64,000 nt of DNA from NCBI GenBank assembly GCA_964016885.1, contig OZ024741.1:210304001-210368000 (forward strand). The letters are read 5' to 3'. The notes below the pieces were generated by a model. That model saw only the letters and a program-made list of their open reading frames with translations, did no database searches and had not been told where the DNA came from. Position 1 is the stretch's first letter. Each line of letters begins with the position of its first letter. Shown piece by piece: positions 31,034 to 64,000 of the stretch. This DNA comes from Eledone cirrhosa (taxonomy: Eukaryota). The position numbers and the translations under genes were made by a program.

Positions 31034-31077
<44 letters not shown>

Positions 31078-33473: not shown

Positions 33474-35100
33474 TTTCCTAGGGAGATATATTCTATCTGT
33501 ATCGCCTTAAGGTGATGCATTCTGTGCATGGTTAAGAATTTTCTAATTTTTGTATCGAGCCTACGGATCTCTGTGCTTGACCAGTTGATGACATTATAAC
33601 TGTAGTTTACTACTGGTATGGCAAGCGTGTTTATGGAATCGATCTTCTTCCTTGCATTCAATTCCGTTCTTAAGATTGCTTCTACTCTGCGGTAACATTC
33701 CTTCCTTATGCTTTCCCTCATTGTCGAGTGCTTGATTCCGTCTCCTTCACAAACACCTAGATATTTGTAAGTTTCCTCTTTATCAAGTTCTCTTATCACA
33801 TTCCCCCGATCAAGATTAATGTCTGAACTTTTCAGCAGCTTTCTTCTGGTGAACGTTGCTTTGGCGCATTTATCTAATCCAAACTCCATTTTAATGTCAT
33901 CACTGAACTGCTTCACAGTGGATAATAGTCCTTGCAATTGTTCATCATTTTTTGCAAATAGTTTCAGGTCATCCATGTAGAACAAGTGATTAATGGTTTT
34001 GTCATAGACTTTATATCCATGTTTTGTTTCATTGAGCATTTTACTTAATGGTATAAGCGCGATGCAGAATAAAAGCGGTGATAAAGAGTCACCCTGAAAA
34101 ATTCCACAATTAATATTAACTTCTCCAGCTTCCAGTGATTTTTTTTCACTATTCAAAAGGAGTATCGTTTTCCATGTCTTCATACTGAATGACAGGAACC
34201 TCCTGACAACGGGAGATATTTTGAAAACATCTAACCATTTTTCAATCCAACTGTGTGGCACGCTATCGAATGCTTTTTTATAATCTATCCAAGCAATTGA
34301 TAGATTTTTGTGTCTATTATGACAATCTTCCAGTATCATTTTGTTAACCAAAGCTGATCTTTACAGCCATATGAGCCTCGTTTACACCCTTTCTGCTCAA
34401 TGGGAAATAGGTCATTTGTTATCAGGTGGTCATATGTGTATTCAGTTAGGACTGATGTTAAAATTTTATACATTGTGGTCAAGCAAGTTATCGGTCTGTA
34501 ATTTTTGGGATTGTTTGTCTCATCATTCTTCGGAAGCAGGAATGTAATGCCGTTAACTAGCCATGATGGTATCTTTTCTGGCTCCTTAACTATTTCATTG
34601 TAAAGTTGGGCTAACAGCTCATGAGACTCTGTGAAGGCATTTATCCAAAAATTTGGTAATTTGTCTTTTCCTGGGGATTTCCATTTGCTGGTTTTTCTAA
34701 GAGCCAAACGCAACTGTTCAAATGTTATATTTTCCCATATTTGTTTCTCAACGTGAGCTGTATCTTTCATTTGTCTGTCTATCCATGGGGCATGTATACT
34801 ATGAACTTTTTCTTCGGCCCAGTTCTTTTCCCAGAATTCTTGCACTTCGTCCTTGGGTGGTATTGATTTAGCAGTTACTGTTGACTTACCAATTTTTCTG
34901 TAGAAGTTTCTTTGGTTGTTTTTGAACATATTATTGTCATTATAGAAACTAGATCGTTTTTCAAAGCGCCTTATACGAGCAGCTTTGGCCGACACTTTTT
35001 GTTTGATTATTTCTATCAGCATGTCTATGTTACTTGTTGATTTTATACTGTATTTTCTTTTCAATTTTCTAAGTTTAGTTTGTTTAACATGTTCACCTAC
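33474..35100 (-). mobile_element. Internal fragment of R4/Dong-like RLE LINE family A
   Basis: RT motifs IDYKKAFDSVPH, QGDSLSP and YMDDLK; colinear with 50498-52126. 5' end abuts (TAA)n and 3' end is fused to the PLE. Confidence 0.9.
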
Positions 35101-35103
35101 ATT

Positions 35104-35104
<1 letters not shown>

Positions 35105-35165
<61 letters not shown>
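35105..35165 (+). repeat. (TTA)n linker; equivalent linkers at 41054-41104, 47060-47077, 49256-49309, 54253-54281, 58737-58799, 58996-59048 and 63760-63841
   Basis: Every element boundary from 35 to 64 kb is a (TTA)n run on the + strand. Confidence 0.95.
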
Positions 35166-35373
35166 GGCGACCTACTTAGTAAATCGTATCATCGTGAGCT
35201 CCGCAAAGGTTTGTTATTTCCGTTTGTTAAAAATTGTCATTTATGGAAAATTTTATTGTTAACTGTTTATAAGCGCACATACATTGTTTTCCGAAAAGGA
35301 CACCCAAAAAGATTGGGGCCTTGTGCCCAAAATTTTAACTTTTATTATTATCCAAAAGTTTCTTTGAAAAAAA

Positions 35374-37365
35374 ATGGCTAATTCCCCTCTGCACGAAGCA
35401 GCTGAAAGCCTTCCTCACAAAATAACACCTCACACCGACACCACCATTGTAAATGTTACTATGTTTGCCAACACAAAAAAAAATATAAGCAGTAGCAATA
35501 TTTTAAATTTGTCTCAGGCAGACATACATTTCCCGCCATTACCAATGACTGCAGGTGTTAAAGCCTCCACCACCACCACCACCGCGACAACCCCCACCCC
35601 CACCACCACCGCGACAACAGAAACAAAAGAATAAAAAAATAAATTAACTCGTGATGTCGAAATGAAATCAAGCAAAATGGACTCTTCCGCACCAAAGACG
35701 AATGACGTCACCACCACCACAACTGAAACAAAAATTAAGATTAACACAAATAACGATAGCAACAACAACAACAATGACATTATAAAACCGACCCTCAGTT
35801 TCGCCATCGTAGCAAAACAATTCGAAGCGTTCACGGTAACTCAAGAAGATTTAGAAAATGCCAAACAAATGGTAAAGAAAGATGGGTACAGGGTCAGCCT
35901 CACCCCCCACCTAATAAAATGGAGCATCGGCGCCTGTGCACCGTGTCGTATAGAACAATAAATGTAAAAGCGCGCCGAGTGGAACGGGCATCCGAGTCCC
36001 AAATCCAAAAAGCTTTGGGACATGTGTGGGCAAGAAAGACCCACATCAGACGTGGGCAAAAGTATGGAACCGTGGATGTGTTCTTTGAAACACCAGAGGA
36101 GGCTAGAGAACACTCCATGGCCCCATTAAAAAGTGACGACCTCACACTCGTCCCAAGCTATTGTGGCCAGAGACTCGTAAAGATCAGGGTGACCCACGTT
36201 CCACCGGCCATCGAAATTCCCTGGCTAATAGCGGCTGTCCTCGCCGGCATCGAAGCCAACACGAAAATAATAGCAGTAGCAAAAGAAAAGCAGGAAAACT
36301 GGTCCGGATCTGGGATGGAGCTCCTGATCCAAGCGGACCAAAAAAGCATTGAGGAGATCCCAGAGGTAATAGACCTCACTGACGGCAGCCACCTCAAGGT
36401 AATTGTCGAGGGCAGAAGACCTAGGTGTGTCGTTTGTGGTGAAGGAACCCACCTAAGGGCTTTCTGCCCTCAGGCTAAAAGGTTGAGGCCACCTCTCCTA
36501 CCCACCCCAGTGACACAACCATCAACACCACCAGTAGCAGAGATGGCAGCAACAACTGTAGCAGCAACAACAGAAGCAACTATAACAGCAACAGCCCCAG
36601 CAACAGTAGCAAAACCAACACCACTACAACCACCAGCAAAACCAACACCACCACCACCCAACGCTTCAGAACTAGCACCAGCGCCTACACCATCCACCAC
36701 ACCACAACCAAAACTAACGGCTGTGGAGGATTTTCCACTCCCCGGCCTATCACAACTGGAGACAGATTGTGACGACGAGGAGTGGGAAACGATATCCGGA
36801 AAAAAAAGGAAACCAAAAAAGAAAAAATTCTCTTCCTTCCCCCTCCAAAAACAAAATACAGAGGGAAACAAATAAACTAAGAAACAAAAAAGTTAGAACA
36901 GATATGCCACCATCCACACCAGCATCACCAACCCCATCAACCCAAACACCAACACCATCACCATCATTAACTCCAACACCACCATCACCTACACCACAAA
37001 AGTCACCAAAATGCGAAACAGAAACAAACCCACAACAAACGCAAACAAAACAAAACAACCAAAACGATACACACTACACAGCATTAAATTTGAACAACAA
37101 GCAATTATTACACTACATCCAACACAACACCAGCATCACAGAAAAAGACTACACAACAACCCCAAAATTCACACCACCTCCACACATACAAATCACTCGC
37201 ATCACACAGAAAACGTACATGACACTAAAACAAAAATTCCCCAAAGACATCGGAGACTTCCGACAAGCACTCTCCAGGAGGATTTATAAGGACATCCTTC
37301 CTGAGGAGGCCACAAGCAGTGAAAAGGATGGAAAAGCCGTCCTTCCCCTACGAGAAGTAAGGTAA
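35374..37365 (+). pseudogene. Tx1 ORF1 (gag-like), disrupted
   Basis: SFAIVAK motif, RRM-like region, zinc knuckle CVVCGEGTHLRAFC and Pro/Thr-rich tail; split over four ORFs. Confidence 0.8.
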
Positions 37366-37399
37366 GTGGTCTTTCCCATCTTTTCCACTCCTTTTCAAC

Positions 37400-40159
37400 A
37401 TGACCTCACTCAGAATAGGCAGCATAAATGCGCGTGGCTTGGGGTCGTCATGGAAGCAGGGCCACCTGCTCAACGACCTCAGGTCACTAAACATAGATGT
37501 AGTGGCCATCAGCGAGACCAGAATCTCCGAAGCACAGGCTTTCGCACCGATCTTCGGCGGCTACGATGTGTACGCATCTCCCAGCCGTCCGGGATCGGGG
37601 GGAGGAGTTGCTGTGCTTTTTCGGAGAGGTTTGGATCTTGCCATACGGGACATCTTCCGGGACCCAGAAGGTAAGTTGGTGGTGCTGGACGTGACCAGCG
37701 GAGACGGGCAAGCTTTCAGGTTAGTGGCCGTCTATGCCCCGACAGGAGCAGGGCGGCCTGATTTCTTCCGGCGTCTGGAGACCTTTCTTGGAACGTCCCG
37801 CTCTTTAGTGTTAGTGGGCGACTGGAACGGGATCTTAGATGCACGCTGGGATTGTGTGGGATTAGTGGATAGGGAAGGAGGGTGCAAGAGTCTCACCAAC
37901 CTGCTCAGACGTTTTGAACTGTCTGACAGGTACCGAATGGATTTCCTGAATGTACCAATATGGACTTGGACAAATCGCATAGGGTCATCCAGATCATATC
38001 TAGATAGAGTATTTTGTAGGGAAATAGATAGGTCTAGCATAGGCTGTCCACAATTCAAGATAGTCAGCTACACGGACCACAAATTCGTGATCTGTGTGCT
38101 TGACTTAGATAGGCTTCATAGACGAGGACCCGGCTACTGGAAGCTAAACGCGTCCTTACCAGCGCGCAAGGCCTACAGAGACCGGATTAGCGAACTAGTT
38201 AAGCGGGCGTTGACGGGGGCCATCGTCAACAACAAGTGGTGGTTTGCTCTGAAAAGAGCAATTAGAATAGAGTCCATTAGGTTTAGTAAGACTTTAGCAA
38301 TAGAGAAAAATAGAGCAGAGGGAGAATTAGTTACAAAATTAGATGAGGCGCTTAGCAAAGGCATCGCGACCGACGTACTTGCCGCGAAATTGGCCCTTGA
38401 CCAATTCTTCAATGCAAAGCACGAAGGCTGCGTTATCAGAGCTAGGATGCGTGCTCTCAGACACGAGGGGACGAAAGCCGTTCAATGGGCCCGAGTGGCG
38501 GAGGCGCGTCGTGGCAACAAAGCCACGATCCGGTCTTTGGTGGACCACGACGGGCGCATGCTACTCGATCCCGGGCAAATGTGTGAAGCTTTTCAGCGAC
38601 ACTTCGCTCAACTGTTCGGGGGCAGTGGCGGGCCGGATCGAGGGATGGACTTTAGTGTCTACCTCGACGGACTGCCGCGGCTTTCGGCCACTGAGGCGGA
38701 GTGTTGCGAAAAGCCGATAACAACCGCTGAAGTACGGGATGCAATGACTAGTTGCACAAGGGGTAAATCACCTGGTTTGGATGGTCTGCCCTATGAACTT
38801 TACGTACAAATGCCACACTTGTTCGGAGGCCTCTTGGCGGACGTCTACTGCAACTGGCAACAGAACAGGAGAATTCCCAGCTCTGTGAGCCGAGGAGCGA
38901 TGGCGCTGCTGAGAAAGGATCCGAACAAGGGGGATAACATAGATAATTTTAGGCCCATAACTCTGCTAAACACAGAGTTCAAGATTTTGGCCAAGGTGCT
39001 AGTAAAGAGGTTGGCGCTTGTCGTTGGTGGTCTGGTGGGAGAGGCACAGACATGCGCCATTCCCGACAGATCCATCCACGACAACCTCCACCTCATGCGA
39101 TACATCGTAGAGAGGGTAGCTAGGGAAGCTGGCACAAGTGGGTCTTTGATCAATTTAGATCAGTCGAAAGCCTTCGATAGGGTCGACCATCGTTACCTAA
39201 CGGCAGTCCTGAAGGCGGCTGGCTTTGGGCCCGTCTTCAGAGGCTGGATCGCTGCCATGCACAGCGACATCTGCTCTGTAGTGAGAGTGAACGGTCACCT
39301 TTCGGAACCGTTCAACATCATGCGCTCGGTCCGCCAAGGATGTCCCCTCTCGTCCCTATTGTACGTATTGACTCTCGAGCCATTACTGCACAAACTGGAG
39401 ACGTTGAGGGGGGTCCCGCGCGAACTAGGATGCGGAAGATCCGTGTCAGCATATGCCGACGATGTCACCGTAGTGGTGTCGAACGCCAAACACATCGAGG
39501 CGATCGGCACTACACTAAGAGAATACGAAGCGGTGACAGGAGCAATGATCAACCAGGAAAAGTCAGTGGGCCTGCAGCTCGGCACCCGGAGAGGCAGGTC
39601 CATGCCGTCCAACAGCGTCGTCGGGCGCTGGACGGACGGACCGGTTAAATTGCTAGGGGTCTGGTTCGGTCCAGACCTCCAGACGGACAAAAACTGGGAC
39701 GAGGTGACGAGCAGGGTGGCTTCTCTCACCCAGAAATGGGCCGAGAGGAAGCTATCCCTGAAAGGTCGAGCGGAGGTGGCGAATGCGTACATCGCATCCG
39801 TCATCTACTACCGCCTGACCGTCGTACCTTGTCCTAAGCCCCGCCTGACTGCGCTGGAGCGTTTGCTCTTTCGCTTCTTGTGGAAGGGACGCGCTCCGAT
39901 GGTCAGGCGGTCCATCTGCTGCCAACACCCGCTACGTGGAGGGCTGGGCATGCCGTGGCTGATGATGCGCAGACACGCGGTCAGGCTACGACATCTCCAC
40001 CTCTTCCTCGACGGTGATCAGGTGTGGTCGCCGTTTGCAAGACACGTTTTTCCCCAGCTCGTCTCCTTGACGGAGCTGCAGTCCTGGGTCAAGCGAAGAC
40101 CGAGAGGGAGCGCTTGGAGACTGGAATGTCTTCAGGCGCTCACCAATCGGGCAATGTGA
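37400..40159 (+). CDS. Tx1 ORF2, APE endonuclease plus reverse transcriptase (919 aa; C-terminus continues in another frame)
   Basis: SINARGL, SETR, GDWN, SYLDRVF and TDHK (APE); KSPGLDGL, NFRPITLLN, DQSKAFDRV, RQGCPLS and YADD (RT). Confidence 0.9.
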   Translation: MTSLRIGSINARGLGSSWKQGHLLNDLRSLNIDVVAISETRISEAQAFAPIFGGYDVYASPSRPGSGGGVAVLFRRGLDLAIRDIFRDPEGKLVVLDVTSGDGQAFRLVAVYAPTGAGRPDFFRRLETFLGTSRSLVLVGDWNGILDARWDCVGLVDREGGCKSLTNLLRRFELSDRYRMDFLNVPIWTWTNRIGSSRSYLDRVFCREIDRSSIGCPQFKIVSYTDHKFVICVLDLDRLHRRGPGYWKLNASLPARKAYRDRISELVKRALTGAIVNNKWWFALKRAIRIESIRFSKTLAIEKNRAEGELVTKLDEALSKGIATDVLAAKLALDQFFNAKHEGCVIRARMRALRHEGTKAVQWARVAEARRGNKATIRSLVDHDGRMLLDPGQMCEAFQRHFAQLFGGSGGPDRGMDFSVYLDGLPRLSATEAECCEKPITTAEVRDAMTSCTRGKSPGLDGLPYELYVQMPHLFGGLLADVYCNWQQNRRIPSSVSRGAMALLRKDPNKGDNIDNFRPITLLNTEFKILAKVLVKRLALVVGGLVGEAQTCAIPDRSIHDNLHLMRYIVERVAREAGTSGSLINLDQSKAFDRVDHRYLTAVLKAAGFGPVFRGWIAAMHSDICSVVRVNGHLSEPFNIMRSVRQGCPLSSLLYVLTLEPLLHKLETLRGVPRELGCGRSVSAYADDVTVVVSNAKHIEAIGTTLREYEAVTGAMINQEKSVGLQLGTRRGRSMPSNSVVGRWTDGPVKLLGVWFGPDLQTDKNWDEVTSRVASLTQKWAERKLSLKGRAEVANAYIASVIYYRLTVVPCPKPRLTALERLLFRFLWKGRAPMVRRSICCQHPLRGGLGMPWLMMRRHAVRLRHLHLFLDGDQVWSPFARHVFPQLVSLTELQSWVKRRPRGSAWRLECLQALTNRAM

Positions 40160-40809
40160 TCGGTGGAAACTCCACCTTGGCGTTCTATAGGGGATTAGTG
40201 GAGGGGAAGAGCGACGACGTACTTGGAGAAACTCTAGGCGTCGACGAAAATAAACTAGCCAATCTCTTCGGAAGGACTTTCGGGCCGGGGCCTATGGACA
40301 ACTTCCAGAAATCCCTGGCCTGGCAGTGCTACCGAGGAGCTTTGCCAGTTCGGGATAAACTCTACAGGCATGGAGGTGCCGTCAGCCGGGCATGTCCGAG
40401 ATGCGCGCAGGGCGACGAAACCGTCCTGCACGCACTCATCCAGTGTCCGAGCATTGCTGACTTGTGGGTTTATGTCGAACACCTGCTGTCACGTGTAGGA
40501 CGGATCCAGCTATCAGCTGAGTCCATCGTGAGGATTGCCCCGCCACCTTCCTTTAGCCGGGAAGGGCAGGCAGTTTTTATCTGTCTGGTGGCCATGGCGA
40601 AAGAGATAGTATGGTGGACACGTTTGAAAGGGCTGAAGACGAGCACTTACCTCTTCGGTGATGCCCTGATTAACTTTTTCAAATTTCATTTGAAAAGGAA
40701 AATCAGGGTAGAGAGGAAAGTGCTCTCTTCCCAGCATTTTGTTGAAAGATGGGTGAGAGAAGCAAGTATGGCCCGAATGAATGGGCCTTCTCTGAGTATG
40801 TGTCTGTAA
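40140..40809 (+). CDS. Tx1 ORF2 C-terminal zf-RVT segment, out of frame with the RT
   Basis: LPVRDKL..CPRCAQGDETVLHALIQC. Confidence 0.8.
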
Positions 40810-41052
40810 ATTAAAGGTGGAAAACTGGGAGAGGGCACTTGCCCTGGTGGTCAGGGCCACTGTGGTCTTTTAATGGGCTTTCTCCACAAATGTCCATCGG
40901 AAGTCTCCCCCCTATTGGGGAATTTTTCTTTGTTATTTTATTTCAAACTCTGTTTTTTTTACACACAGAAATGCCCATTTGTACCGTCCTCTATTGTCCT
41001 GTACTGTCCTTAATGTCTACTTTATGTAAACCCTTGTGGTTAATAAAGAAAA

Positions 41053-41104
<52 letters not shown>

Positions 41105-44100
41105 GAATGCTATGTTTGACGGAGGCTCGGCTCTGTAAGGTATTGTAAATTTTGAACGCTATAACAACTGTATACTGTTTAAAACTTTTACCAACTTGTA
41201 GACAAAAACACCCTCCTCCTCGTGAGAGGGGTCTTTCTGCCCGTTATTTGGCCCTTCGTGGTTAAATAACTGCTTATTGGGGTTTTGTACTCAATATTTA
41301 TTTTAAACACAAAAAAAACAACATGGCTACGAAAAATAAATTTCATAGGTCACTCCCACTCATTCCGTCTTCTTCTTCCTCAATCATCACTACAGCAGAG
41401 AGAAGATTGTCTCTCTCCCTCCCTTCTTTAAATGTGTCTCTTTCCCTCCCTTCTCTTTCGCAAGCGACGAAAGAAAAGAAAAGTCTCGTGCAAAGCGTGC
41501 AAGGGTTCTCCACGACGACGACGACAGCGACGAAACAGGTGTGCGGAAAATACGAAAACCCAGTTCATTCGTCTGACGTCAGGAATAATAGCAGTCGCAG
41601 CCGTAATAACAACAGCAACAGTGACAATGAAAACAACAGTAGCAGCCGAAACAGCATCACCAGCAGAATAAACAACAACAGCATTAGCAGCAGCAACACC
41701 AACAACAACCACAGCAACAGCGGCGGAGGCAGTAGTCGTAGTACCTGCAGCAACAACAAAAGTAACAGCAGCTCTGACGACAACAACAACAACAGCAGCA
41801 AAGAAAAACCAATCTCATTTGCAGGTATTGCGAAAAACTTGGAAACAATCCTCATAACAAATGAGGAATTAGAGGAAGCGAAGAAGATGGTGACAAAGAA
41901 TGGACACCGAGCAATCTGCAAGGCAGCGGAAAAATGTTTCGAAACCCAACAGCACTGTACGGTCACGTACCGCACAGTAAGTACAAAATCCCGTAGGGTG
42001 GAAAGAGCCACAGAGGCTCAAATACAAAAAGCCTTGGGGTCTGTGTGGCAGCGGAAAACGCACATCACCCGAGGCAAAAAATATGCCACCGTAGACGTAC
42101 TTTTTGCCACACCCCAGGAGGCAAAGGCCCAATCCGTAGTGACCCTAAGGAGCGAGGAAATGGTGTTGGTGCCCTCCTACTGCGGGCAAAAAATTGTGAG
42201 GGTCAAACTGACCCACGTCCCCCCCGGAATGGCCCCTTCTTGGCTGGCCGCGTCTGTCCTCGTCGGAATCGAGGACAAAACAACTGTACTGCAAGTACAG
42301 AAAAAAGTAAGAGAAGATTGGGTCGGCACCTCCATTGAGATGCTAATCCAAACCAACCAGGAGTGCATCGAAGCTATCCCGGATGTGATAGACTTCGATA
42401 ACGGCACTCAACTGCCCATAAGTGTTGAGGGCAAACGCCCGAAATGCTTTCGCTGTGGATCGAAGACTCACCTCAGGGCCTTCTGCAACGAGAAGACCCT
42501 GAGAAAGGAGAAAACCCCCTCCTTCCGAAACCGGCTCCACGGCTACCAGCAACAGGACAAGCGGCAACCAGAAACGATAGGTCCGTGGTACCCATACCCA
42601 CGCCACGGAAATTAAAAACAGCAGCAGCAGTGGAAATATTTACAACAACAACAGCAATACCAAATGCAGCTGCAACAGAGACTCCAGTGCAAACATCACC
42701 AACAACAAGTGAAAGAGTGGAGCTGGTACCCCTCCCCGACCTCATAGAATCAGACATGGAGTGTGAGGTGGGAGAGGGATGGCAAAAGGTCGTAAGAAGG
42801 CACAAACGCAGAAGCAGCGCATCGTCGCCTTTGCAAAGAGACCCACAGCAGCAACACCACCAACACCATCACCACCCACACTAGCACCACCATCACCACC
42901 GGCGACAACCACACCGCCAACAACACCTACAACACCACCACCACAAGCACCAACATCGCAAACACAACAACAAAACACACACACCCAGCAACAACAACAA
43001 GAAAATAGCAGAACCACACCACACCCCCAGAAAGACAAATGCACGGCAATAAATACACACAACAAGAAACTAATGACTTACATAATTGAACACACAGACA
43101 TTTCACAACACGACTACATAATACCAGCACCAATCAAAACGCCAACTAACATAAGACTGCTAAAAATAGCACAGAAACAATACACAAACATTAAAACGAA
43201 ATTCCCCAACGCAGTTGGTGATTTCAGGGACCTAGGAGGAACTATCAATCGAAGAGTATATTCAGACATTCTCTTAGAAGAGCCGCGGACCAGATTAAGG
43301 GACGATTCAACGGTCCCTTCACCAGACGATCAAGTGAAAAGGGATGTAAAAACCATCCCCCCTCTACGAAAAGTACGGTAAGTGGTCTTTCCCATCTTTT
43401 CCACTCTATTTTAAACATGACCCCACTCAGAATAGGCAGCATAAATGAGCGTGGCTTGGGGTCGTCATGGAAGCAGGGCCACCTGCTCAACGACCTCAGG
43501 TCACTAAACATAGATGTAGTGGCCATCAGCGAGACCAGAATCTCCGAAGCACGGTCCTTCGCACCGATCTTTGGCGGCTACGATGTGTACGCATCTCCCA
43601 GCCGTCCTGGATCGGGGGGAGGAGTTGCTGTGCTTTTTCGGAGAGGTTTGGATCTCGCCATACGGGCCATCTTCCTGGACCCAGAGGGTAAGCTGGTGGT
43701 ACTGGACGAGACCAGCGGAGACGGGCAAGCTTTCAGGCTAGTGGCCGTCTATGCCCCGACAGGAGCAGGGCGGTCTGATTTCTTCCGGCGTCTGGAGACC
43801 TTTCTTGGAACGTCCCGCTCTTTAGTGTTAGTGGGCGACTGGAACGGGATCTTAGATGCACGCTGGGACTGTGTGGGATTAGCGGATAGGGGTGGAGGGT
43901 GCAAGAGCCTCACCAAACTGCTCAGGCGTTTTGAAGTGTTACCGATTGGATTTCCCGAATGTGCCAATGTGGACTTGGACAAATCGTATAGGGTCATCCA
44001 GATCATATCTAGATAGAGTATTTTGTAGGGAAATAGATAGGTCTAGCATAGGCTGTCCACAATTCAAGATAGTCAGCTACACGGACCACAAATTCGTGAT

Positions 44101-47059: not shown

Positions 47060-47071
47060 ATTATTGTTATT

Positions 47072-49254: not shown

Positions 49255-49256
<2 letters not shown>
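47072..49256 (-). mobile_element. 5'-truncated R4/Dong-like RLE LINE family B, copy 1
   Basis: Open RT-CCHC-RLE frame near-identical to 54282-56466; truncated at tccaat|tatt, with microhomology to the (TAA)n tract. Confidence 0.92.
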
Positions 49257-49309
<53 letters not shown>

Positions 49310-49310
<1 letters not shown>

Positions 49311-52300: not shown

Positions 52301-54250
52301 AGTTTGTTTGTGATGATAATGTTTTTGAGAATTATGTTAGTCTTGTGTATTATCTTTTGGTTCTGTTTGGAGTTCTGGATCTTAGGGAGGGTGTCTCGTT
52401 GCCCCATGTCAGATTCTTTCATCTTCATCCATTCGATCATAATTTCATCCTTCAAGTTGGCAAGTTCATTCTCATTCATTTCTTTATCATATACGATCTC
52501 ATTATTTTCATTTGGAGTTTCATCCTGAGCATGCACTCCCTCCACTTTTTCAATCCTTTCTTTAATTTGTTCTGTTGCCAGTGATTCCGCCCCAACCCTG
52601 GGATTCGAAGTGTTACAATTTACCTCGTTTTCACTGACACATGTTTCATTTTCCCTTCGCTGACTTTGTGCTAATAGCTTGATCTGATCAATTTCTATAT
52701 CAGCTAGTAACTTTTTTCTTACAATATTTCTTCGTATATTGGCTAGTTTGTTGCTGTCAATATAGCCTCTGTTTTCGGGATGTTTCTTTTTCCAGTTGAT
52801 ATATGTCTGTTCTGTATTCGATGTATTTGATGGGTAGTACATGGCAGTGTAGAAAGCCTCAAAGACTTCTTTATTATCTTCCCTTGACCATTTTTCTCTC
52901 TTTTTCTTTGGATTTCTTTGTGGTGAGCATGGAGGGCCAACAGTAGGAGTATTCCGGTTATGGGAGGTCTCCAGCTCCGAAGTGATGGGAAGGTTTGAAC
53001 CATTAGCTGATTTTTCGACCCCAGTCTGGTTCCTCTCTGAGGGACGCAGCCCTTTTTTACCCGGGTGACGGCCGATCCGGTATGAGATTTTATTATTAGA
53101 CATTTACTTTATTTTGTCGCGTTTTATCCTTATCCGCTAAGGGGTAATCATTTCGTGTTACCACTTCTAGAACGAGTGTCAACCAAGACTAGAGGGTCGT
53201 TCTCCCCTAGAGACACGGCTATTCCCCGCCGGCCGCCATCCCTGTATTTCTTTGTCACGGGGTTTTCTTTTTGTTGTTTTTTTTTTAAATTGTTATTATC
53301 ATGAGTGGTTCCTTAATGTGAGCATTGCGTGGCTTAAGAATGAAATTATTAATAATTGACTCCACTCCAGGCACAAGGCCAGCAATCATCCAGTACATTA
53401 CAATAATATAATATACTGTTTGTTGTAGTTGGCTGTTATTGTTGTTGGCTATGTCGGTGGTGGTGCCGGGGCTTTTTATATTGTTGGTGAGGAAGGGGTG
53501 AGCCAGCAGTCGCATAGTTGTTGATGTTGACGTTCGGCCGTGGCTAGGTCACTAAGTCAATCTATTTATATCTTTTGCTAGCCTCTCCCTTGTCTAGTGA
53601 TACCGCCACCTTCCCCTTTCTCTCTCAAGTTATCAGGGAAATAGTGGTGGTAGCATTGGAGGAGTGGTGGTGGCGGGGAGATGTGGGAGACGGTAGCGGC
53701 GGTATCGATACTGAGACAGTGGTGGTGGTGATGTCGATACCGAGGCAGTGGTGGCGGTGATGTGATCGTATTACTGTAGTGATGGTGTTGTAGCGGTGGT
53801 AGCAATGAAGTAGTGGTGGCGGCGGTGATGGGATAGTGGTGGTAATGATGGCAGTAGTGAGTTGTGGTGGTGAAATTGCCGTTATCTGGCTGTTGTGTTT
53901 AGTGTACACAGAGAGGTGATGGGGTAGGTGTTGTATCTAGTTTCTGGTGTTGGTGAGATTGGTGTTGTTTGGCTGTTCTATATAGCGTAGACAGAGGAGG
54001 GGGGGGGTTCTTCTTCCATTTATAGCCATTTTCTTTTTTGAATATACAATGTACAATACAAAGTTGAATATTTGAATATGTGAGTCTTATAACAATATAT
54101 TTTGGGTTCGAATTCTTTGGGGCTCAAGCTGGATGCTTTACGTAGCATTTGTACTAAGAGTTGTTATTTCACAAATGATTTAAATATGTTAAAAATTCAA
54201 AACTTACGGGAGCGATTTCATGACCTTCCGCCACCTCGTGCGTCTTCTTC
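49310..54250 (-). mobile_element. Full-length R4/Dong-like RLE LINE family A with long 5' leader
   Basis: ORF from 53103 to about 49455, with frameshifts near 51820 and 49550. Motifs REKWSREDN, YMDDLK, RHD, RPDIIL..IDMSVP and GTAHILRKILSI; 3'UTR followed by (TAA)n. 53555-54250 is homologous to the family B leader. Confidence 0.88.
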
Positions 54251-54281
54251 CCTTATTATTATTATTATTATTATTGTTGTT

Positions 54282-57200
54282 GTTATTCCTTGAATCTCAG
54301 TCATTGATGTTGGTTAACTGGAAAGTCCGTTGGATTGAATATCAAGCCACTACCTGCAGCCTCAGATATTCAGGACGTATCGGAGGGTTCTTGCTGTTCC
54401 AAGCAAGCATGCCTTTTGAAGCGTTCCAAAAAGCGTGAAGGGGCCGATTTTCTTTAACCATCCCTGGAAACTTTTGGAGATAGTCCCCAGTGCGCCTATG
54501 ACAATCGGGATCACTTTGACTTCATGGCAGTTCCAAATCCTTTTCACCTCCCACTTTAGGTCCTGGTATCGGTTAATTTTCTCCCTCTCCTTCTCTTGCA
54601 CTCTCGTGTCGAACGGGCAGGCCACATCCACAATCAGACACGATCTTTTTTCTTTGTCCACAACCACCAGGTCAGGTCTATTGTGTTCCAGTTTTTTGTC
54701 CGTCTGTATCCTAAAATCCCACAGCACCTTCACCTGATTGTTCTCCATCACCGCCTCTGGCCTATGCTCATACCATTTCTCAGAATGTGGTAAATTGTTT
54801 ACTTTGCACAGGTGCCAGTGGATCACCCTGCCCATCACATCGTGTCTCCAGCCCTTATAGTGGGTCTGGGCTAGGTGTTTACACTCGGACACAATGTGAG
54901 CCACAGTCTCCTCTCTCTCTCCACAGATCCTGCACAGTGGGCTAGCCTCCTCCTTGTAGATATGGTGCTTCAACCACTTCGTTTTGAGGGCCTGCTCCTG
55001 CGCAGCCATTAGCATTCCTTCTGTAGCCTTTTTGAGGTCTCCTCTTCTCAACCAGTTCCATGTCTGTGGATCTCTAAATTCAGTTTTCTCAAAGAAGGTA
55101 CTATGAAGGGATTTTCCCTTAAGGCTGCTCTTCCTCCTTGATGTTATTTCCTCCTTGGTCATCCCCTGGCCTACTGTCCCCTCCTTCAGTACAGTTCTGA
55201 GCATTGGCTCCTTACTATAGGTCACGTATTTGTATAGGTTGTTTTTCTCCATCTGAACACAGTCCTCTATGCTGATAAGACCTCTTCCACCCTCAGATCT
55301 CCTTAGGTAGAGTCTATCGACATCACTCCTCTTGTGGAACATGTTGTAGATAGTCAATAGCTTCCTAGTGTTCCTATCCATTTCTTTTTGTTCAGCAACA
55401 TGCCATCTCAGAATTCCCGCACTGTACCTAATAATAGACACAGCTCGGGAATTTACTGCGCTTATGGCATTTCTGCTGTTCAGATGTGACTTCAATACGC
55501 TCCTTACTCTCCGAATGTATTCAGTTCTTAACAATTCCTTCATTTTTTTGTTCTTTATGCCATCAGCCTCCAGAACGCCCAAATACTTGTATCCTTCCTC
55601 AGAGTCAATTTCCTTTATCATCTCACCTGTTGGTATCTGGATCCCGTTACTTCTGCTCAACCTACCCCTCTTCATCACAATGACTCCACATTTACCAATA
55701 CCAAACTGCATATATATATCACTGCTGAAAATACGGACAGTGTCAACAAGCACATCCAACTCCTTCTCACTTTTCCCGAAGAGCTTAAGATCGTCCATGA
55801 AGAGGAGGTGATTGATGGTATGCTCTCCCCTTCCCAACTTGTATCCTGCTCTCACTTTTCGCAGCATAATGGTCAAGGGCATCAGGGCAAGGACAAACAA
55901 CAGAGGGGACAGGCTATCTCCCTGGAAGATACCTCTCTTGATCTTCACGCTTCCCAAGGATACTCCAGTTGATGTCAACTCTGTCTCCCAGGACCCCATA
56001 CTCCTGCCTAGCAACTGTCTGATGTTATCTGCCACCTTGAAGATCTCCAGGCTTTTGGTGATCCAGGAATGGGGCACCATGTCAAATGCCTTTCTGTAGT
56101 CTATCCATCCCATGGCAAGATCAGTGTGTCTCCTCCTGCAATTCCCCATTACCATCTTATCAATAAGTAACTGGTCCTTTGTACCACGTGACTTCTTTCG
56201 GCATCCTTTCTGTTCGTCCGGTAACAAGTTGTTTGTGTGGAGGTGATGGTAGATTTCCTCAGACACAATGCTCGTCAACAGTTTCCACATTACGGACAGA
56301 CATGTAATAGGTCTATAGTTGGTAACATCATTACCCTTGATTCGGTCTTTCATTATGAGAACTGTGGTACCTTTTGTCAACCACTCTGGCACCTCACCCG
56401 ACACCAAGCAGTCATTGAACATGGCCGTCAGCTTCGGGTGGAGGGATGTTAAATGTTTAATCCAATACCCCTGCACACCATCTGGGCCTGGTGATTTCCA
56501 GTTGGTTAGTTTTTTGGCCTGCCCCTTAAGAGTTTCAACTGTGATACTCAACTCAGTTTGTTGTTGTGCCTGCTCACCGATCTCCCTCTGTACTGTCTCA
56601 ATCCACCCTGCCTGGGCATTGTGTCTAACATCCTGCTCCCATATTCCTCTCCAGAATGTTTTAGTTTGCTCCGCCCCAGGCATCAAGTCGTTGCCTCTTT
56701 CTTTGCCCTCAAGCTGTCCAAACAGCATCTTCTGGTTGTTGTCGAACATGCGGTTCTGTTTATACTGACTGACTCTGTTCTCGTATCGCCTGATTTTTGC
56801 ACTCTTTGCTACAATGCGTTGCTTCAATTCCTCTATGATAATATTTAGCTTTTTACTCCTAGTTTTGTATTTTATTTCCAGTCTATTTTTAGTGCCTATG
56901 TTTTTTAGTGTCCCATTCAGTAGTGACTCAAGCTTTCCTATGTCATTTCTCATTTCCCCGATTTGCCCACTCAGTCGCTTCTTCCACCACGGCTCTGCTC
57001 TTTCTTGTCTGTTGTTTCCTCTCGCTTTTATACCAAGTAGTTTCCTCACCGTATTTGCTGTTGCTTTGAGGATATTGTTGCACTGGTGAAGGCTCCTCGC
57101 CTCAAGGTATGGGATGACTTTGTTTACCTTAGCTGTTGTTTCTTTTAACTTTTTCCTGTCTACAAATCTTAGGTTCATAGGTCTCCCACTATCATTGTTC

Positions 57201-58733
57201 AATTCATCTACCACTAAATTTAGGATGTCAACCGAATCTTGTCCTAGCCCGTCAGCATTCATCTCCTCAGTGGCCGTATCTCTGTTCCAGGTATTATTTA
57301 TCTCAGTATTCAGATCATTGTCTGCTTCGGGTGGTTCCTCCGTTCTCAGGACCTCTTCACCTTCATTTCCCACTGGCTCGCTTGTCTTGCATACTACACC
57401 CGCCATCTCCAAGCCATTCTCTCTGCTCAGTTCCTCCAGTTCCAGCTCGCTTATCCATCCATTAGTTCTTATTACCCGAGCCTGCCCGGCCAATTTTTGT
57501 TCATCTAATTTAAATAAACCAATCTCGTTCCAGATGTTATGCATCCGTCTCCTGTAGCCCCTCTCCTTGGGGTTACTTTTCAGGTAACATTGCATAACAG
57601 TTCTATTCAATTCTTTCGTCCAGTTGGTTCTGGCCCCTTTCCTTCTTCTCCTTCCTCCAACATCAGCAGTATTTGGTTGACAGTCAGGTTCCTGCTGCTG
57701 AGCCAGCGGGCACCTGTTGGGTGAGAGTCTGTCACATGACGTTCTAGACTCCATTTCACCGTTATTCGAACTGTTTATGTTCGATATTTAAACACTCTTA
57801 TCGAGGATTGGCGAATGTATGGTTACATATCCATCTGTGGATCCGCCATTCCACTTGGCCCTTGTGTGGCATTATCACCACGCTGTATACGAACACACAT
57901 AAACAAACAAACACACGGGCAGAAAGGGCCCCAAAAATGAATAAGCATAAGTTTCATTGTAATGTAGTGTTCGAATGTCTGACTTAGTTTTTGTTTTTTA
58001 AGTTTTAGTTTTTCCCCCCTCTTCTCTGTCCGTCCGCCTGCTTCTCTCTTCATTCTTATTTTCTTTACGTTTTGGGGGTTTCTTTTTTTGTTTTTGTTTT
58101 TCTCTGTTTGTTTTTCTCGTTTTTGCTGTTGTTGCTGTGCTGCTTTGGTTTTGTTGTTTGTTTTTTCTTTTTTCTTTTGAGTCTATCTATATATTTTGAT
58201 GCCTTCCTCTTTGTTAGTAGTAGGAATTCTATAATGTGGAAGTAGCAGCCAGCAGGGAGAAGTGGGAGACTGGCGGCGGTAGCGATACTGAGACAGTGGT
58301 GGTGGTGATGTCGATAGCGAGGCAGTGGTGGCGGAGATGTGACCGTATTACTGTAGTGATGGTGCTGTAGCGGTGGCAGCAGTGAAGGAGTGAAGGGGTG
58401 GTGGCGGCGATGATGGGATAATGGTGGTAATGATGGCCGTAGTGAGCGGTTGAAAATGCCGTTATCTGGCTGTTGTGTTTAGTGTACACAGATGATGGGG
58501 TGGGTGGTGTATCTAGTTTCTGGTGTTGGTGAGTTTGGCTGTCCTATATAGTGTAGACAGAGGAGAGGAGGGGGGGGGGTTCTTCTTCCATTTATAGCCA
58601 TTTTCTTTTTTGGATATACAGTGTACAATACAAAGTTGAATATTTGAATATTTGAGCCTTATAACAATATATTTTGGGTCTGAATTTTTTGGGGGCTCAA
58701 GCCGGGTGCGTTACGTAGCATTTGTACTAAGAG

Positions 58734-58738
<5 letters not shown>
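54282..58738 (-). mobile_element. Near full-length R4/Dong-like RLE LINE family B, copy 2
   Basis: Single ORF and a ~1-kb leader lacking the outermost ~80 nt seen in copy 3; (TAA)n on both sides. Confidence 0.93.
54362..57754 (-). CDS. Uninterrupted 1130-aa RT plus CCHC plus restriction-like endonuclease protein
   Basis: RTNWTKELN N-terminus, KSPGPDG, IDYRKAFD, QGDSLSP, FMDDLK, CRICGEREETVAHIVSEC, RHD, RPDLVVVD..IVDVACP..EKINRY. Confidence 0.93.
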   Translation of the reverse strand: MESRTSCDRLSPNRCPLAQQQEPDCQPNTADVGGRRRRKGARTNWTKELNRTVMQCYLKSNPKERGYRRRMHNIWNEIGLFKLDEQKLAGQARVIRTNGWISELELEELSRENGLEMAGVVCKTSEPVGNEGEEVLRTEEPPEADNDLNTEINNTWNRDTATEEMNADGLGQDSVDILNLVVDELNNDSGRPMNLRFVDRKKLKETTAKVNKVIPYLEARSLHQCNNILKATANTVRKLLGIKARGNNRQERAEPWWKKRLSGQIGEMRNDIGKLESLLNGTLKNIGTKNRLEIKYKTRSKKLNIIIEELKQRIVAKSAKIRRYENRVSQYKQNRMFDNNQKMLFGQLEGKERGNDLMPGAEQTKTFWRGIWEQDVRHNAQAGWIETVQREIGEQAQQQTELSITVETLKGQAKKLTNWKSPGPDGVQGYWIKHLTSLHPKLTAMFNDCLVSGEVPEWLTKGTTVLIMKDRIKGNDVTNYRPITCLSVMWKLLTSIVSEEIYHHLHTNNLLPDEQKGCRKKSRGTKDQLLIDKMVMGNCRRRHTDLAMGWIDYRKAFDMVPHSWITKSLEIFKVADNIRQLLGRSMGSWETELTSTGVSLGSVKIKRGIFQGDSLSPLLFVLALMPLTIMLRKVRAGYKLGRGEHTINHLLFMDDLKLFGKSEKELDVLVDTVRIFSSDIYMQFGIGKCGVIVMKRGRLSRSNGIQIPTGEMIKEIDSEEGYKYLGVLEADGIKNKKMKELLRTEYIRRVRSVLKSHLNSRNAISAVNSRAVSIIRYSAGILRWHVAEQKEMDRNTRKLLTIYNMFHKRSDVDRLYLRRSEGGRGLISIEDCVQMEKNNLYKYVTYSKEPMLRTVLKEGTVGQGMTKEEITSRRKSSLKGKSLHSTFFEKTEFRDPQTWNWLRRGDLKKATEGMLMAAQEQALKTKWLKHHIYKEEASPLCRICGEREETVAHIVSECKHLAQTHYKGWRHDVMGRVIHWHLCKVNNLPHSEKWYEHRPEAVMENNQVKVLWDFRIQTDKKLEHNRPDLVVVDKEKRSCLIVDVACPFDTRVQEKEREKINRYQDLKWEVKRIWNCHEVKVIPIVIGALGTISKSFQGWLKKIGPFTLFGTLQKACLLGTARTLRYVLNI

Positions 58739-58800
<62 letters not shown>

Positions 58801-58995
58801 TGATTCTTGTTAAATAATCTTCAGCACGTAGTTATCACTATCACTATAATCACCATTATCTTAACACCATTGTCATTTTCATTTCTTCACATCAATAACA
58901 TCATCATCTTCATTGTTATTTTTTTGTCCATAGCCATTTTCATTGTTGTCGTCATTAGAACCATCATCATTATCACCATTATCACCAGCATCGTC

Positions 58996-59047
<52 letters not shown>

Positions 59048-59048
59048 G

Positions 59049-62000
59049 TTATTCCTTGAATCTCAGTCATTGATGTTAGTTAACTGGAAAGTCCGTTGGA
59101 ATGAATATCAAGCCACTACCTGCAGCCTCAGATATTCAGGACGTATCGGAGGGTTCTTGCTGTTCCCAGCAAGCATGCCTTTTGAAGCGTTCCAAAAAGC
59201 GTGAAGGGGCCGATTTTCTTTAACCATCCCTGGAAACTTTTGGAGATAGTCCCCAGTGCGCCTATGACAATCGGGATCACTTTGACTTCATAGCAGTTCC
59301 AAATCCTTTTTACCTCCCACTTTAAGTCCTGGTATCGGTTAATATTCTCCCTCTCCTTCTCTTGCACTCTCGTGCCGAATGGGCAGGCCACATCCACAAT
59401 CAGACACGATCTTTTTTCTTTGTCCACAACCATCAGGTCAGGTCTATTGTGTTCCCGTTTCTTGTCCGTCTATATCCTAAAAGCCCACAGCACCTTCACC
59501 TGATCGTTCTCCATCACCGCCTCTGGCTTATGCTCATACCATTTCTCAGAATGTGGTAAATTGTTTACTTTGCACAGGTGCCAATGGATCACCCTGCCCA
59601 TCACATCATGTCTCCAGCCCTTATAGTGTGTCTGGGCTAGGTGTTTACACTCGGATACAATGTGTGCCACAGTCTCCTCTCTCTCTCTCCACAGATCCTG
59701 CACAGTAGGCTAGCCTCCTCCTTGTAAATATGGTGCTTCAACCACTTCGTTTTAAGGGCCTGCTCCTGCGCAGCCATTAACATTCCTTTTGTAGCCTTTT
59801 TAAGGTCTCCTCTTCTCAGCCAGTTCCATGTCTGTGGATCTCTAAATTCAGTTTTCTCAAAGAAGGTACTATGAAGGAATTTTTCCTGAAGGCTGCTCTT
59901 TCTGCTTGATGTTATTTCCTCCTTGGACATCCCCTGGCCTATTGTCCCCTCCTTCAGTACAGTTCTGAGCATTGGCTCCTTACTATCAGTCACGTATTTG
60001 TGTAGGTTGTTTTTCTCCATCTAAACACAGTCCTCTATGCTGATAAGACCTCTTCCACCCTCAGATCTCCTTAGGTAGAGTCTATCGACATCACTCCTCT
60101 TGTGGAACATGTTGTAGATAGTCAATAGCTTCCTAGTCTTCCTATCCATCTCTTTTTGTTCAGCAACATTCCATCTCAGAATTCCCGCACTGTACCTAAT
60201 AATAGACACAGCTCGGGAATTTACTGCGCTTGTGGCATTTCTGCTGTTCAGATGTGACTTCAATACGCTCCTTACTCTCCGAATGTATTCAGTTCTTAAC
60301 AATTCCTTCATTTTTTTGTTCTTTATGCCATCAGCCTCCAGAACGCCCAAATACTTGTATCCTTCCTCAGAGTCAATTTCCTTTATCATCTCTCCTGTTG
60401 GTATCTGGATTCCGTTACTTCTGCTCAACCTACCCCTCCTCATCATAATGACTCCACACTTACTAATACCAAACTGCATACATATATCACTGCTGAAAAT
60501 ACGGACAGTGTCAACAAGCACATCCAACTCCTTCTCACTCTTCCCGAAGAGCTTAAGATCGTCCATGAAGAGGAGGTGATTGATGGTAAGCCCTCCCTTT
60601 CCCAACCCGTATCCTGCTCTCACTTTTCGCAGTACACTGGTCAGGGGCATCAGGGCAAGGACAAACAACAGAGGGGACAGGCTATCTCCCTGGAAGATAC
60701 CTCTCTTGATCTTCACGCTTCCCAAGGATTCTCCAGTTGATGTCAATTCTGTTTCCCAGGACCTCATACTCTTGCCCAACAACTGTCTGATGTTATCTGC
60801 CACCTTGAAGATCTCCAGGCTTTTGGTGATCAAAGAATGAGGCACCATGTAAATGCCTTTCTGTAGTCTATCCATCCCATGGCAAGATCAGTCTGTCTCC
60901 TCCTGCAATTCCCCATTACCATCTTATCAATAAGTAACTGGTCCTTTGTACCACGTGACTTCTTTCGGCATCCTTTCTGTTCGTCCGGTAACAAGTTGTT
61001 TGTGTGGAGGTGATGGTAGATTTCCTCAGACACAATGTTCGTCAACAGTTTCCACATTACGGACAGACATGTGATAGGTCTATATTTGGTAACATCATTA
61101 CTCTTGATTCGGTCTTTCATTATCAGAACTGTGGTACCTTTTGTCAACCACTCTGGTACCTCACCTGACATCAAGCAGTCATTGAACATGGTTGTCAGTT
61201 TCGGGTGGAGGGATGTTATATTTTTAATCCAATACCCCTGCACACCATCTGGGCCTGGTGATTTCCAGTTGGTTAGTTTTTTGGCCTGCCCCTTAAGAGT
61301 TTCAACTGTGATACTCAAATCAGTTTGTTGGTGTGCCTGCTCACCGATCTCCCTCTGTACTGTCTCAATCCACCCTGCCTGGTCATTATGTCTAACATCC
61401 TGCTCCCATATTCCTCTCCAGAATGTTTTAGTTTGTTCCGCCTCAGGGATCAAGTCGTTGCCTCTTTCTTTCCCCTCAAGCTGTCCAAACAGCATCTTCT
61501 GGTTGTTGTCGAACATGCGGGTCTGTTTATACTGACTGACTCTGTTCTCGTATCTCCTGATTTTTGCACTCTTTGCTACAATGCGTTGCTTCAATTCCTC
61601 TATGATAATATTTAGCTTTTTCCTCCTAGTTTTGTACTTTATTTCCAGTCTATTTTTAGTGCCTATGTTTTTTAGTGTCCCATTCAGTAGTGACTCAAGC
61701 TTTCCAATGTCATTTCTCATTTCCCTGATTTGTCCACTCAGTCGTTTCTTCCACCAAGGCTCTGCTCTTTCTTGTCTGTTGTTTCCTCTCGCTTTTATAC
61801 CAAGTAGTTTCCTCACCGTATTTGCTGTGGTTTTGAGGATATTGTTGCACTGGTGAAGGCTCCTCGCCTCAAGGTATGGGATGACTTTGTTTACCTTAGC
61901 TGTTGTTTCTTCTAACTTTTTCCTGTCTACAAATCTTAGGTTCATAGGTCTCCCATTATCATTGTTCAATTCATCTACCACTAAATTGAGGATGTCAACC

Positions 62001-63760
62001 GAATCTTGTCCTAGCCCGTCAGCATTCATCTCCTCAGTGGCCGTATCTCTGTTCCAGGTATTATTTATCTCAGTATTCAGATCATTGTCTGCTTCGGGTG
62101 GTTCCTCCGTTCTCTCGACCTCTTCACCTTCATTTCCCACTGGCTCGTTTGCCTGGCATACTCCACCCTCCATCTCCAAGCTAATCTCTCTGCTCAGTTC
62201 CTCCATTTCCAGCTCGCTTATCCACCCATTAGTTCTTATTACCCGAGCCTGCCCGGCCAATTTTTGTTCATCTAATTCAAATAGACCAATATCGTTCCAG
62301 ATGTTATGCATCCGTCTCCTATAGCCCCTCTCCTTGGGGTTACTTTTCAGGTAACATTGCATAACAGTTCTATTCAATTCTTTCGTCCAGTTGGTTCTGG
62401 TCCCTTTCCTTCTTCTTCTTCCTCCGACACCAGCAGTATTTGGTTGACAGCCAGGTTCCTGCTGCTGAGCCAGGGAGCACCTGTTGGGTGAGACCCTGTC
62501 ACATGACGTTCTAGTCTCCATTTCACCGTTATTCGAACTGTTTAGGTTCGATATTTAAACACTCTTATCGAGGATTGGCGAATGTATGGTTACATAACCA
62601 TCTGTGGATTCACCATCTCCGGTGGTTGCGTCGCTCCACTTGGCTCTTGTGTGGCATTATCACCACGCTGTAGACGAACACAAATAAACAAACAAACAAA
62701 CAGGCAGAAAAAACCCCCCAAAATGAATAAGCATAAGTTTCATTGTAATGTAGTGTTCGAATGTCTGACTTAGTTTTTCCCTTCTCTTCTCTGTCCGTCC
62801 GCTTGTTTCTCTCTTCATTCTTATTTTCTTTACGTTTTTTTGTTTTTTTGTTTTTCTCTGTTTGTTTGTTTTTTTTTGTTTTTTTTTGTTGTTGTTGCTG
62901 TGCTGCTTGGGTTTTGATTTTTGTTTTTTCTCTTTTGAGTCTATCTATATATTTTGATGCCTTCCTCTTTTTTAGTAGGAATTCTATAATGTGGTGGCAG
63001 TGCTGTGCTAGCAGCAACTAGCAGGAGGCAATGGGAGAGAATAGCGGCGGTAGCGATACTGAGACAGTGGTGGTGGTGATGTCGATACTGAGGCAGTGGT
63101 GGTGGTGATGTGATCGTATTACTGTAGTGATGGTGTTGTAGCGGTGGTAGCAATGAAGGAGTGGTGGTGGCGGTGATGGGATAGTGGTAGTAATGGTGGA
63201 TGGGCGGCGTTGTCGTTACTGATGTCCGTTCGGTGAATCTATGGGGTTAGTCGCGTACATGTGTTGACATAAATTCCCTTAATGTTGGAATTAAACATTT
63301 TGTTAAAACTTGGGACAATAATAATAGTATTTATTATTATCATTATTATGTTGAGATTGGTTGTGGTGGTGGTGGTGAAGTTGCCGTTATCTGGCTGTTG
63401 TGTTTAGTGTACACAGAGAGGTGATGGGGTAGGTGGTGTATCTAGTTTCTGGTGTTGGTGAGATTGGTGTTGTTTGGCTGTTCTATATAGTGTAGACAGA
63501 GGAGGGGGGGGGGGTTCTTCTTCTTCCATTTATAGCCATTTTCTTTTTTGAATATACAATGTACAATACAAAGTTGAATATTTGAATATTTGAGCCTTAT
63601 AACAATATATTTTGGGTCCGAATTTTTTTTGGGCTCAAGCCGGATGCTTTACGTAACATTTGTACTAAGAGTTGTTATTTCACAAATGATTTAAATATGT
63701 TAAAAATTCAAAACTTACGGGAGCGATTTCATGACCTTCTACCACCTCGTGCGTCTTCTT
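59049..63760 (-). mobile_element. Full-length family B copy 3, disrupted
   Basis: ORF 62521-59128 has stops and frameshifts. Complete leader with an extra ~170-bp insert at about 63195-63360. Confidence 0.92.
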
Positions 63761-63778
63761 TATTATTATTCTTTATTA

Positions 63779-63806
63779 TTTGGCCTTGTGCCAAAAGTAG
63801 AAACAA
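63779..63806 (+). mobile_element. 3' tip of the Meta-like SINE within the (TTA)n linker
   Basis: ttggccttgtgccaaaagtagaaacaattatt is the exact reverse complement of 3803-3834. Confidence 0.7.
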
Positions 63807-63841
63807 TTATTATTATTATTATTATTATTATTATTGTTATT

Positions 63842-64000
63842 GTTATTCCTTGAATCTCAGTCATTGATGTTGGTTAACTGGAAAGTCCGTTGGATTGAAT
63901 ATCAAGCCACTACCTGCAGCCTCAGATATTCAGGACGTATCGGAGGGTTCTTGCTGTTCCAAGCAAGCATGCCTTTTGAAGCGTTCCAAAAAGCGTGAAG
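63842..64000 (-). mobile_element. 3' end of family B copy 4 (continues beyond the window)
   Basis: Matches 54282-54440 by eye. Confidence 0.9.

Follow-up and report, generated by a model that had tools for sequence, protein, structure and literature searches.

A 64,000-nucleotide stretch of the Eledone cirrhosa genome (3.0-Gb assembly GCA_964016885.1, contig OZ024741.1, positions 210,304,001 to 210,368,000; hereafter the window) holds a stack of long interspersed elements (LINEs) that very probably represents separate insertions into one TTA/TAA microsatellite by two types of element facing in opposite directions. The + strand elements encode an apurinic/apyrimidinic-type endonuclease (APE) and appear to be of Tx1 type; those on the − strand, which we assign to the Dong/R4 type, carry a restriction-like endonuclease (RLE), and the opposed polarity likely results from nicking of opposite strands by the two enzymes. 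The arrangement is real, well supported and genome-wide: mixed Tx1–RLE arrays are common in this genome, and the stack type is not special to the window locus.

Layout of the array

The stack runs from 33474 to ~69015 (35.5 kb; coordinates are window positions) and contains two Tx1-type LINEs (+) and six RLE copies (−). Its right end lies beyond the window, at a (TTA)5 followed by unique host DNA. On the left it stops where an RLE-A fragment, having lost ~1.2 kb of its 3' end, meets a Penelope-like GIY-YIG element (33473/33474); unique DNA flanks the array on both sides. The components are as follows (RT, reverse transcriptase; ORF, open reading frame; UTR, untranslated region; SINE, short interspersed element; zf, zinc finger).

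33474..35106, −: RLE-A internal fragment, 95.8% identical to 50498-52131, with RVT_1; 5'-truncated at the TTA run
35105..35165: (TTA)20 where the two types meet head-to-head, with no tail from either neighbour
35166..41054, +: Tx1a, full length; 5'UTR, ORF1 with CCHC knuckle, frameshifted APE-RT-zf ORF2; AATAAA beside the 3' end
41055..41104: (TTA)16-TT, separating Tx1a from Tx1b
41105..47059, +: Tx1b, full length; 5'UTR and ORF1 unlike those of Tx1a, ORF2 broken
47060..49255, −: 5'-truncated RLE-B copy 1; a short degenerate repeat joins its tail to that of Tx1b
49256..49309: (TTA)18
49310..54252, −: full-length RLE-A with head X and a single frameshift near 51810
53673..54252, −: head X of RLE-A, a 5' module of ~580 nt common to RLE-A and RLE-B
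54253..58736, −: (TTA)7 and RLE-B copy 2, whose head X lacks ~85 nt; its 1141-aa open frame spans 54362-57787
58737..59045: (TTA)21, 198-bp low-complexity spacer (58800-58997), (TTA)16
59046..63760, −: RLE-B copy 3, frameshifted; head X split into 63032-63199 and 63366-63760
63770..63833, +: 3' stub of a TTA-tailed SINE (63770-63806), then (TTA)9
63834..64000, −: 3' end of RLE-B copy 4, which continues past the window to ~69001, then (TTA)5
31051..33473, −: Penelope-like RT/GIY-YIG element at the left border, no TTA at the junction

All repeat runs in the array have TTA polarity, with 19 units at 35107, 16 at 41055, 18 at 49256, 7 at 54253, 21 at 58737, 16 at 58998 and 9 at 63807, and perfect TTA runs of at least 14 nt were absent from 251,250 background positions in neighbouring non-array DNA. 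A preliminary description of this DNA had proposed eight consecutive LINEs, each bounded by the repeat. Their order and orientations stand, as do the head-to-head Tx1/RLE junction at 35.1 kb and the tail-to-tail junction at 47.06 kb, but the repeat does not bound every element: it is missing to the left of the first RLE-A fragment, and the junction at 47060 reads TTA-TTG-TTA-TTG-TTA, the degenerate tail of RLE-B itself, with no pure run. Nor are the elements strictly consecutive, since the spacer, the split RLE head (63032-63760) and the SINE tail stub intervene. The copies are not identical: those of RLE-B share 94-99% identity and differ in truncation points and 5' ends, and Tx1a and Tx1b have only their 3' 3.76 kb in common (96.4% identical). 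A search of Rfam for ribozymes or other known RNAs in the array or head X gave 11 weak matches, none near the gathering score.

Penelope-like GIY-YIG elements occupy three places in the window (4628-6906, 30327-33473 and 21154-22149); two of them are close (85-88%) and mutually inverted.

The repeat as insertion target

The flanks of related copies elsewhere in the genome (sampled loci, given L-numbers) show that TTA is more than a tail. The best-scoring genome matches to full-length Tx1a and Tx1b, 30 each with the window copy included in each set, all begin after a TTA run (30/30 and 30/30, thus 60/60); in the 59 heads that could be parsed, the run is perfect over at least 12 nt in 57 and ends in ATT phase in 58. 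Across all sampled loci, 58 distinct 5'-truncated Tx1 junctions, scored by the presence of a TTA 7-mer within 25 nt, comprise 37 at TTA, none at TAA and 21 at neither, against a background of 1.4%. Because a tail cannot supply 5' flanks, these non-random junctions bear out the earlier proposal that the repeat is a target and not just a self-encoded end. Tx1 3' ends are followed by TTA in 131/143 cases and by TAA in one.

The RLE families give the opposite polarity. RLE-A 3' ends adjoin TAA in 69/69 cases and its truncated junctions in 28/35, with none at TTA; for RLE-B the counts are 90/94 and 43/49, with one truncated junction at TTA (background 0.45% for both). Pooled, with identical junctions collapsed, 71/84 truncated RLE junctions lie at TAA and one at TTA. 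The RLE flanks are thus (TAA)n, as in Dong/R4 elements, and the two clades lie opposed in one repeat, as TRAS and SART do, at interstitial sites on many contigs. In genome order, the first 30 by position of 3,699 exact matches to the 30-mer at the RLE-B 3' end have as their next element an opposed Tx1 (9), a same-sense RLE (10), an opposed SINE (1) or no recognised neighbour (10); the contrary orientation does not occur among them. The proposed fixed and opposite orientation of the two clades therefore holds at 3' ends and at both full-length and truncated 5' junctions.

Further evidence comes from an RTE-like LINE whose 5'UTR contains a TTA tract. In different paralogues, Tx1a, Tx1b, Tx1c (an older Tx1 subfamily), RLE-A or RLE-B has inserted into this tract, Tx1 copies in one sense and RLE copies in the other. 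Both halves of the host element are present around Tx1a (L403), Tx1c (L264) and RLE-B (L205), and at L403 a 48-bp target duplication restores the entire tract. Both clades enter one pre-existing tract in opposite directions, and the repeat is therefore a target, not only a tail. The RTE-like LINE (L411-L419, L205, L403, L264) also has a second landing site in the 3'UTR, a TTA/TTG tract of degenerate sequence.

Identity of the elements

The + strand elements match Pfam Exo_endo_phos, RVT_1 and zf-RVT, and both Tx1a and Tx1b have a two-ORF layout with a CX2CX4HX4C knuckle in ORF1. An intact 1152-aa ORF2 frame at L110 finds human L1 ORF2p as its best PDB match (E 5e-52, versus 3e-20 for R2), and the APE catalytic residues align with those of human L1. 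The sole named homologue of ORF2 is a coral 'Transposon TX1' protein (32%), and an RT tree without reference Tx1 or L1 rows left the Tx1-versus-L1 node open. Architecture and target together point to the Tx1 type. The flanks are (TTA)n rather than the (TTC)n or (TC)n of the Tx1 elements Koshi and Kibi, with occasional adjoining TTC runs (L045, L059, L249). TAA/TTA runs often shade into GAA/TTC beside RLE heads or Tx1 ends (L142, L152, L162, L163, L165, L113, L249).

The − strand elements have a single ORF with RT, CCHC and a PD-(D/E)xK-type C-terminus, and no APE match in Pfam, which we take to be the architecture of R4-type elements (a single ORF with RT, CCHC and restriction-like endonuclease); with the (TAA)n target, this suggests the Dong/R4 type. 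The structure predicted for the 1141-aa RLE-B frame (predicted local distance difference test score 85.5) best matches R2 proteins (E 3e-36). RLE-A and RLE-B proteins are 40% identical over 761 residues. Protein-database searches with the elements returned only unnamed RT families, and none of the 120 homologues listed out of 1,314 for the RLE proteins was informatively named. A third RLE family lies at 1-2372 of the window (+), with 26-38% protein identity to RLE-A/B, and ends immediately before a 430-bp (TA)n tract.

A sister family on (TCTA)n

The window also contains a 5'-truncated copy of a sister Tx1 family:

9892..10941, −: sister Tx1 family, 69% DNA identity to Tx1a

A (TA)n target for this element was considered and rejected, the flanks of its family being (TCTA)n. 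In this family (loci L341-L390), 22/29 parsed 3' ends have TCTA polarity, with no TAGA and no (TTA)3 (background 0.6%), and many truncated junctions, judged by eye, adjoin the same repeat. The family makes tandems of its own (L375, L390), and no opposed RLE partner was evident in the arrays at these 50 loci. In the RT tree, which was midpoint-rooted, comes from a single search and may include mosaics, the (TCTA)n copies, together with the elements in tandem with them, form the sister group of Tx1c (98/94) and nest inside the TTA families. Relative to Tx1a, the (TCTA)n family is 54-63% identical in the endonuclease (EN; cleaner alignments) and ~65-75% in the RT, with a changed hairpin loop; the corresponding values for Tx1c, which keeps TTA, are ~70% and ~75-78%. 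Loop grafts are known to alter the specificity of L1-EN (PMC1950540).

The SINE and a proposed insertion mechanism

An abundant 184-bp SINE, tRNA-like and with a TTA tail, shares the polarity of Tx1. A 27-mer from its head has 27,528 genome matches, partly within a 45-bp satellite, a tandem form of the SINE head seen at G000:C1 around 1.98 Mb and 10.32-10.36 Mb. Target duplications of 12-19 bp flank 16/20 parsed copies (30 loci, L281-L310), and 15 of them start A|TTAT. The SINE is likely mobilised by the Tx1 protein. The RTE-like LINE was rejected as its partner, the 3' end of the one RTE-like family compared being unrelated. Together with the 48-bp duplication at L403, the SINE duplications support the earlier suggestion that every insertion leaves a fresh target behind.

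Target-primed reverse transcription begins with a nick in the strand complementary to the 3' flank. Given this geometry, Tx1 likely nicks and primes on the TAA strand and the RLE elements on the TTA strand. If Tx1 mobilises the SINE, its nick motif would be short (A|TTAT) and its stagger about five repeat units, which suggests that the long repeat is chosen partly by RNA-tail pairing. No A6 run occurs within 30 nt of Tx1 ends (0/125), despite AATAAA just before the repeat, and on this account priming by pairing of UUA units seems plausible. Insertion might then proceed as follows: the Tx1 enzyme would recognise a short motif around A|TTAT; its RNA, carrying a few UUA units past the poly(A) signal, would pair with the nicked strand, which would favour long repeats and account for the missing poly(A); and a second cut ~12-19 bp away would duplicate about five units. 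Each insertion would leave repeat on both sides, usable next by either clade or by the SINE, and the TTA-tailed SINE, likely Tx1-mobilised, may seed further targets.

Weighing the explanations

Several observations weigh against separate, target-specific insertion from opposite strands. The pooled junction fractions are inflated, many loci having been reached through another TTA element, though smaller and less biased sets scored by eye gave TTA at 13/16 truncated Tx1c junctions (two internal deletions dropped) and the expected repeat at 13/14 truncated RLE-B junctions taken in genome order. The expected repeat is absent from 21/58 truncated Tx1 and 13/84 truncated RLE junctions. A few RLE copies have the orientation typical of Tx1, at places where the repeat itself changes polarity or the copy contains an inversion; L077 and L078 show a twin-priming-like internal inversion of an RLE copy and a site at which the repeat switches from TAA to TTA. 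None of the RTE-like LINE paralogues retrieved had an empty tract. Most SINE copies sit at a 5-nt motif in unique DNA, and the preference of the LINE for long repeats may therefore require more than its endonuclease. The SINE–Tx1 partnership is based on matches at 11-17 of the 24 terminal bases, compared with 8-9 for RLE ends. The strand assignment is itself deduced from insertion geometry.

We favour a short enzyme motif combined with tail pairing. The main rival is that targeting is almost wholly RNA–DNA pairing, both enzymes nicking AT-rich DNA loosely and the UUA or UAA tail setting the polarity. That SINE copies need only A|TTAT, that Tx1 ends lack poly(A) and that RLE-B has a fixed self-encoded TAA/CAA stretch all agree with this, as do the pairing of the SART1 3'UTR with its target discussed in PMC7265360 and the finding that L1-EN shows less defined nicking in vitro than is seen for integration in vivo (PMC1950540). 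The fixed ATT phase at 58/59 heads argues against this reading, however, as does the (TCTA)n family, in which the EN has diverged more than the RT and the hairpin loop has changed, while Tx1c has kept TTA; pairing alone seems to us less likely than not.

It is far less probable that only the RLE families are site-specific and exploit TTA tails that Tx1 makes for itself. Dong is known to specialise in TAA (PMC3812793) and an RLE follows tail-to-tail after 12/30 Tx1 3' ends, but a tail cannot supply the TTA at 60/60 full-length and 37/58 truncated Tx1 5' junctions, and Tx1 copies lie within the RTE-like LINE 5'UTR tract; this explanation is largely refuted. We give just as little credence to an assembly artefact or a tandem or segmental duplication: frameshifts are common in the copies and no read or contig that spans a whole junction stretch turned up, only short contigs, yet the copies differ by 1-6% and vary in head and in point of truncation, junctions of these types are seen again on many contigs and unique DNA bounds the array on both sides.

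A head shared between RLE families

Head X (~580 nt) is the only DNA similarity between RLE-A and RLE-B and is 84-95% identical across the two families; it occurs in the window at 53673-54252, 58252-58736 and 63032-63760 and at sampled loci L141-L170 and L311-L340. Because of this high identity, its exchange between the families looks recent. RLE-A likely acquired the head from the RLE-B lineage, since older head variants precede older RLE-B copies: 24/30 such variants show RLE-B protein matches downstream. The transfer perhaps happened twice; locus L280 bears a 77% variant. Head X was also considered as a captured Tx1 5' end and rejected, as 0/30 older variants lead into Tx1 ORFs; its layout resembles that of a Tx1 5' end, with an ATG near nt 224, but it shares no more than low-complexity similarity with four Tx1 heads. 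An A-rich ATG context at ~nt 224 is kept in variants only 70% identical, and head X likely acts as a promoter. Because SINE-tail-like remnants sit in the 5'UTRs of Tx1a (35315-35350), RLE-A (near 53340-53400) and an older RLE-B variant (L312), the sequences suggest that element heads are assembled from array neighbours.

Comparison with known systems

Each polarity fits the known habit of its clade. Dong elements of the R4 clade, including DongBg of the snail Biomphalaria, target TAA microsatellites (PMC3812793), as the RLE copies do here; unlike Dong, two families (40% identical) with one 5' head are involved and Tx1 co-occupies the repeat. In Octopus vulgaris, Dong-R4 is listed as the recently active LINE group with the most copies (PMC13282606), and the accessible text of that annotation contains no target analysis; the set of elements met here (Dong-R4, Tx1, RTE, Penelope and SINE) resembles the one given there; the accessible part of a study of coleoids lists Dong-R4 and L1-Tx1 without giving targets (PMC8967140). 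Among Tx1-clade APE elements, Koshi uses (TTC)n, Kibi (TC)n and crocodilian Tx1 (TTCC/TTTC)n, all pyrimidine-rich repeats (PMC4494074). The Eledone Tx1-type elements resemble Koshi and Kibi in having a microsatellite target written pyrimidine-rich and differ from all three, in a comparison of targets rather than sequences, in using (TTA)n and (TCTA)n and in having an invertebrate host. SINEU shares the target of Tx1-Mar with weaker specificity (PMC4494074), much as the SINE here shares that of Tx1, and in our case the SINE end also resembles the Tx1 3' tail.

Use of one target by an APE and an RLE element is known from Keno (Tx1) and Utopia, in which the U2 snRNA (small nuclear RNA) gene target evolved in parallel (PMC4640811). 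Those two elements have identical 3' flanks, and hence the same orientation, in a low-copy gene, whereas the Eledone elements are opposed in a dispersed, self-renewing microsatellite. Opposed use of one simple repeat has its precedent in TRAS and SART, which belong to the R1 clade. In Bombyx they enter (TTAGG)n in opposite directions and on opposite strands (PMC7265360); unlike these telomeric elements, which are both of APE type, the pair described here sets an APE against an RLE at interstitial sites genome-wide. A 5' module as the only common part of unrelated LINEs is known from ingi and L1Tc (PMC4758252), which head X recalls.

Dong, Koshi/Kibi, Keno/Utopia and TRAS/SART each anticipate one feature, and the combination is what differs. 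In the searchable literature we found neither a (TTA)n- or (TCTA)n-specific Tx1 (Repbase and Dfam lay outside the scope, and a prior description is possible) nor unrelated enzymes opposed in one dispersed, self-renewing microsatellite.

Significance

Tentatively, and at a little short of even confidence, we propose a microsatellite-centred community in which a (TTA)n Tx1 lineage, its SINE and two Dong lineages would insert from opposite strands into one target that they also regenerate, and would exchange heads, and from which a (TCTA)n sister would have been spun off through changes in the EN hairpin loop. If so, (TTA)n and (TCTA)n would join the list of Tx1-type targets, and the arrays would provide a case of APE and RLE enzymes using one microsatellite from opposite strands. 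The community would also supply a naturally matched pair in which to study target switching by LINE endonucleases: at ~65-75% in the RT and 54-63% in the EN, the TTA and TCTA families are near enough to each other for probing APE target specificity, and what sets that of L1-EN is a question left open in PMC1950540. The Tx1 elements are a candidate partner for a highly abundant SINE, and annotators of such arrays should expect families to be merged through common heads and nested copies. As the preliminary description suggested, opposed copies might also give rise to antisense RNA or piRNAs. Finally, repeated insertion into a target that each copy renews may explain how LINE hotspots arise in the genomes of cephalopods.

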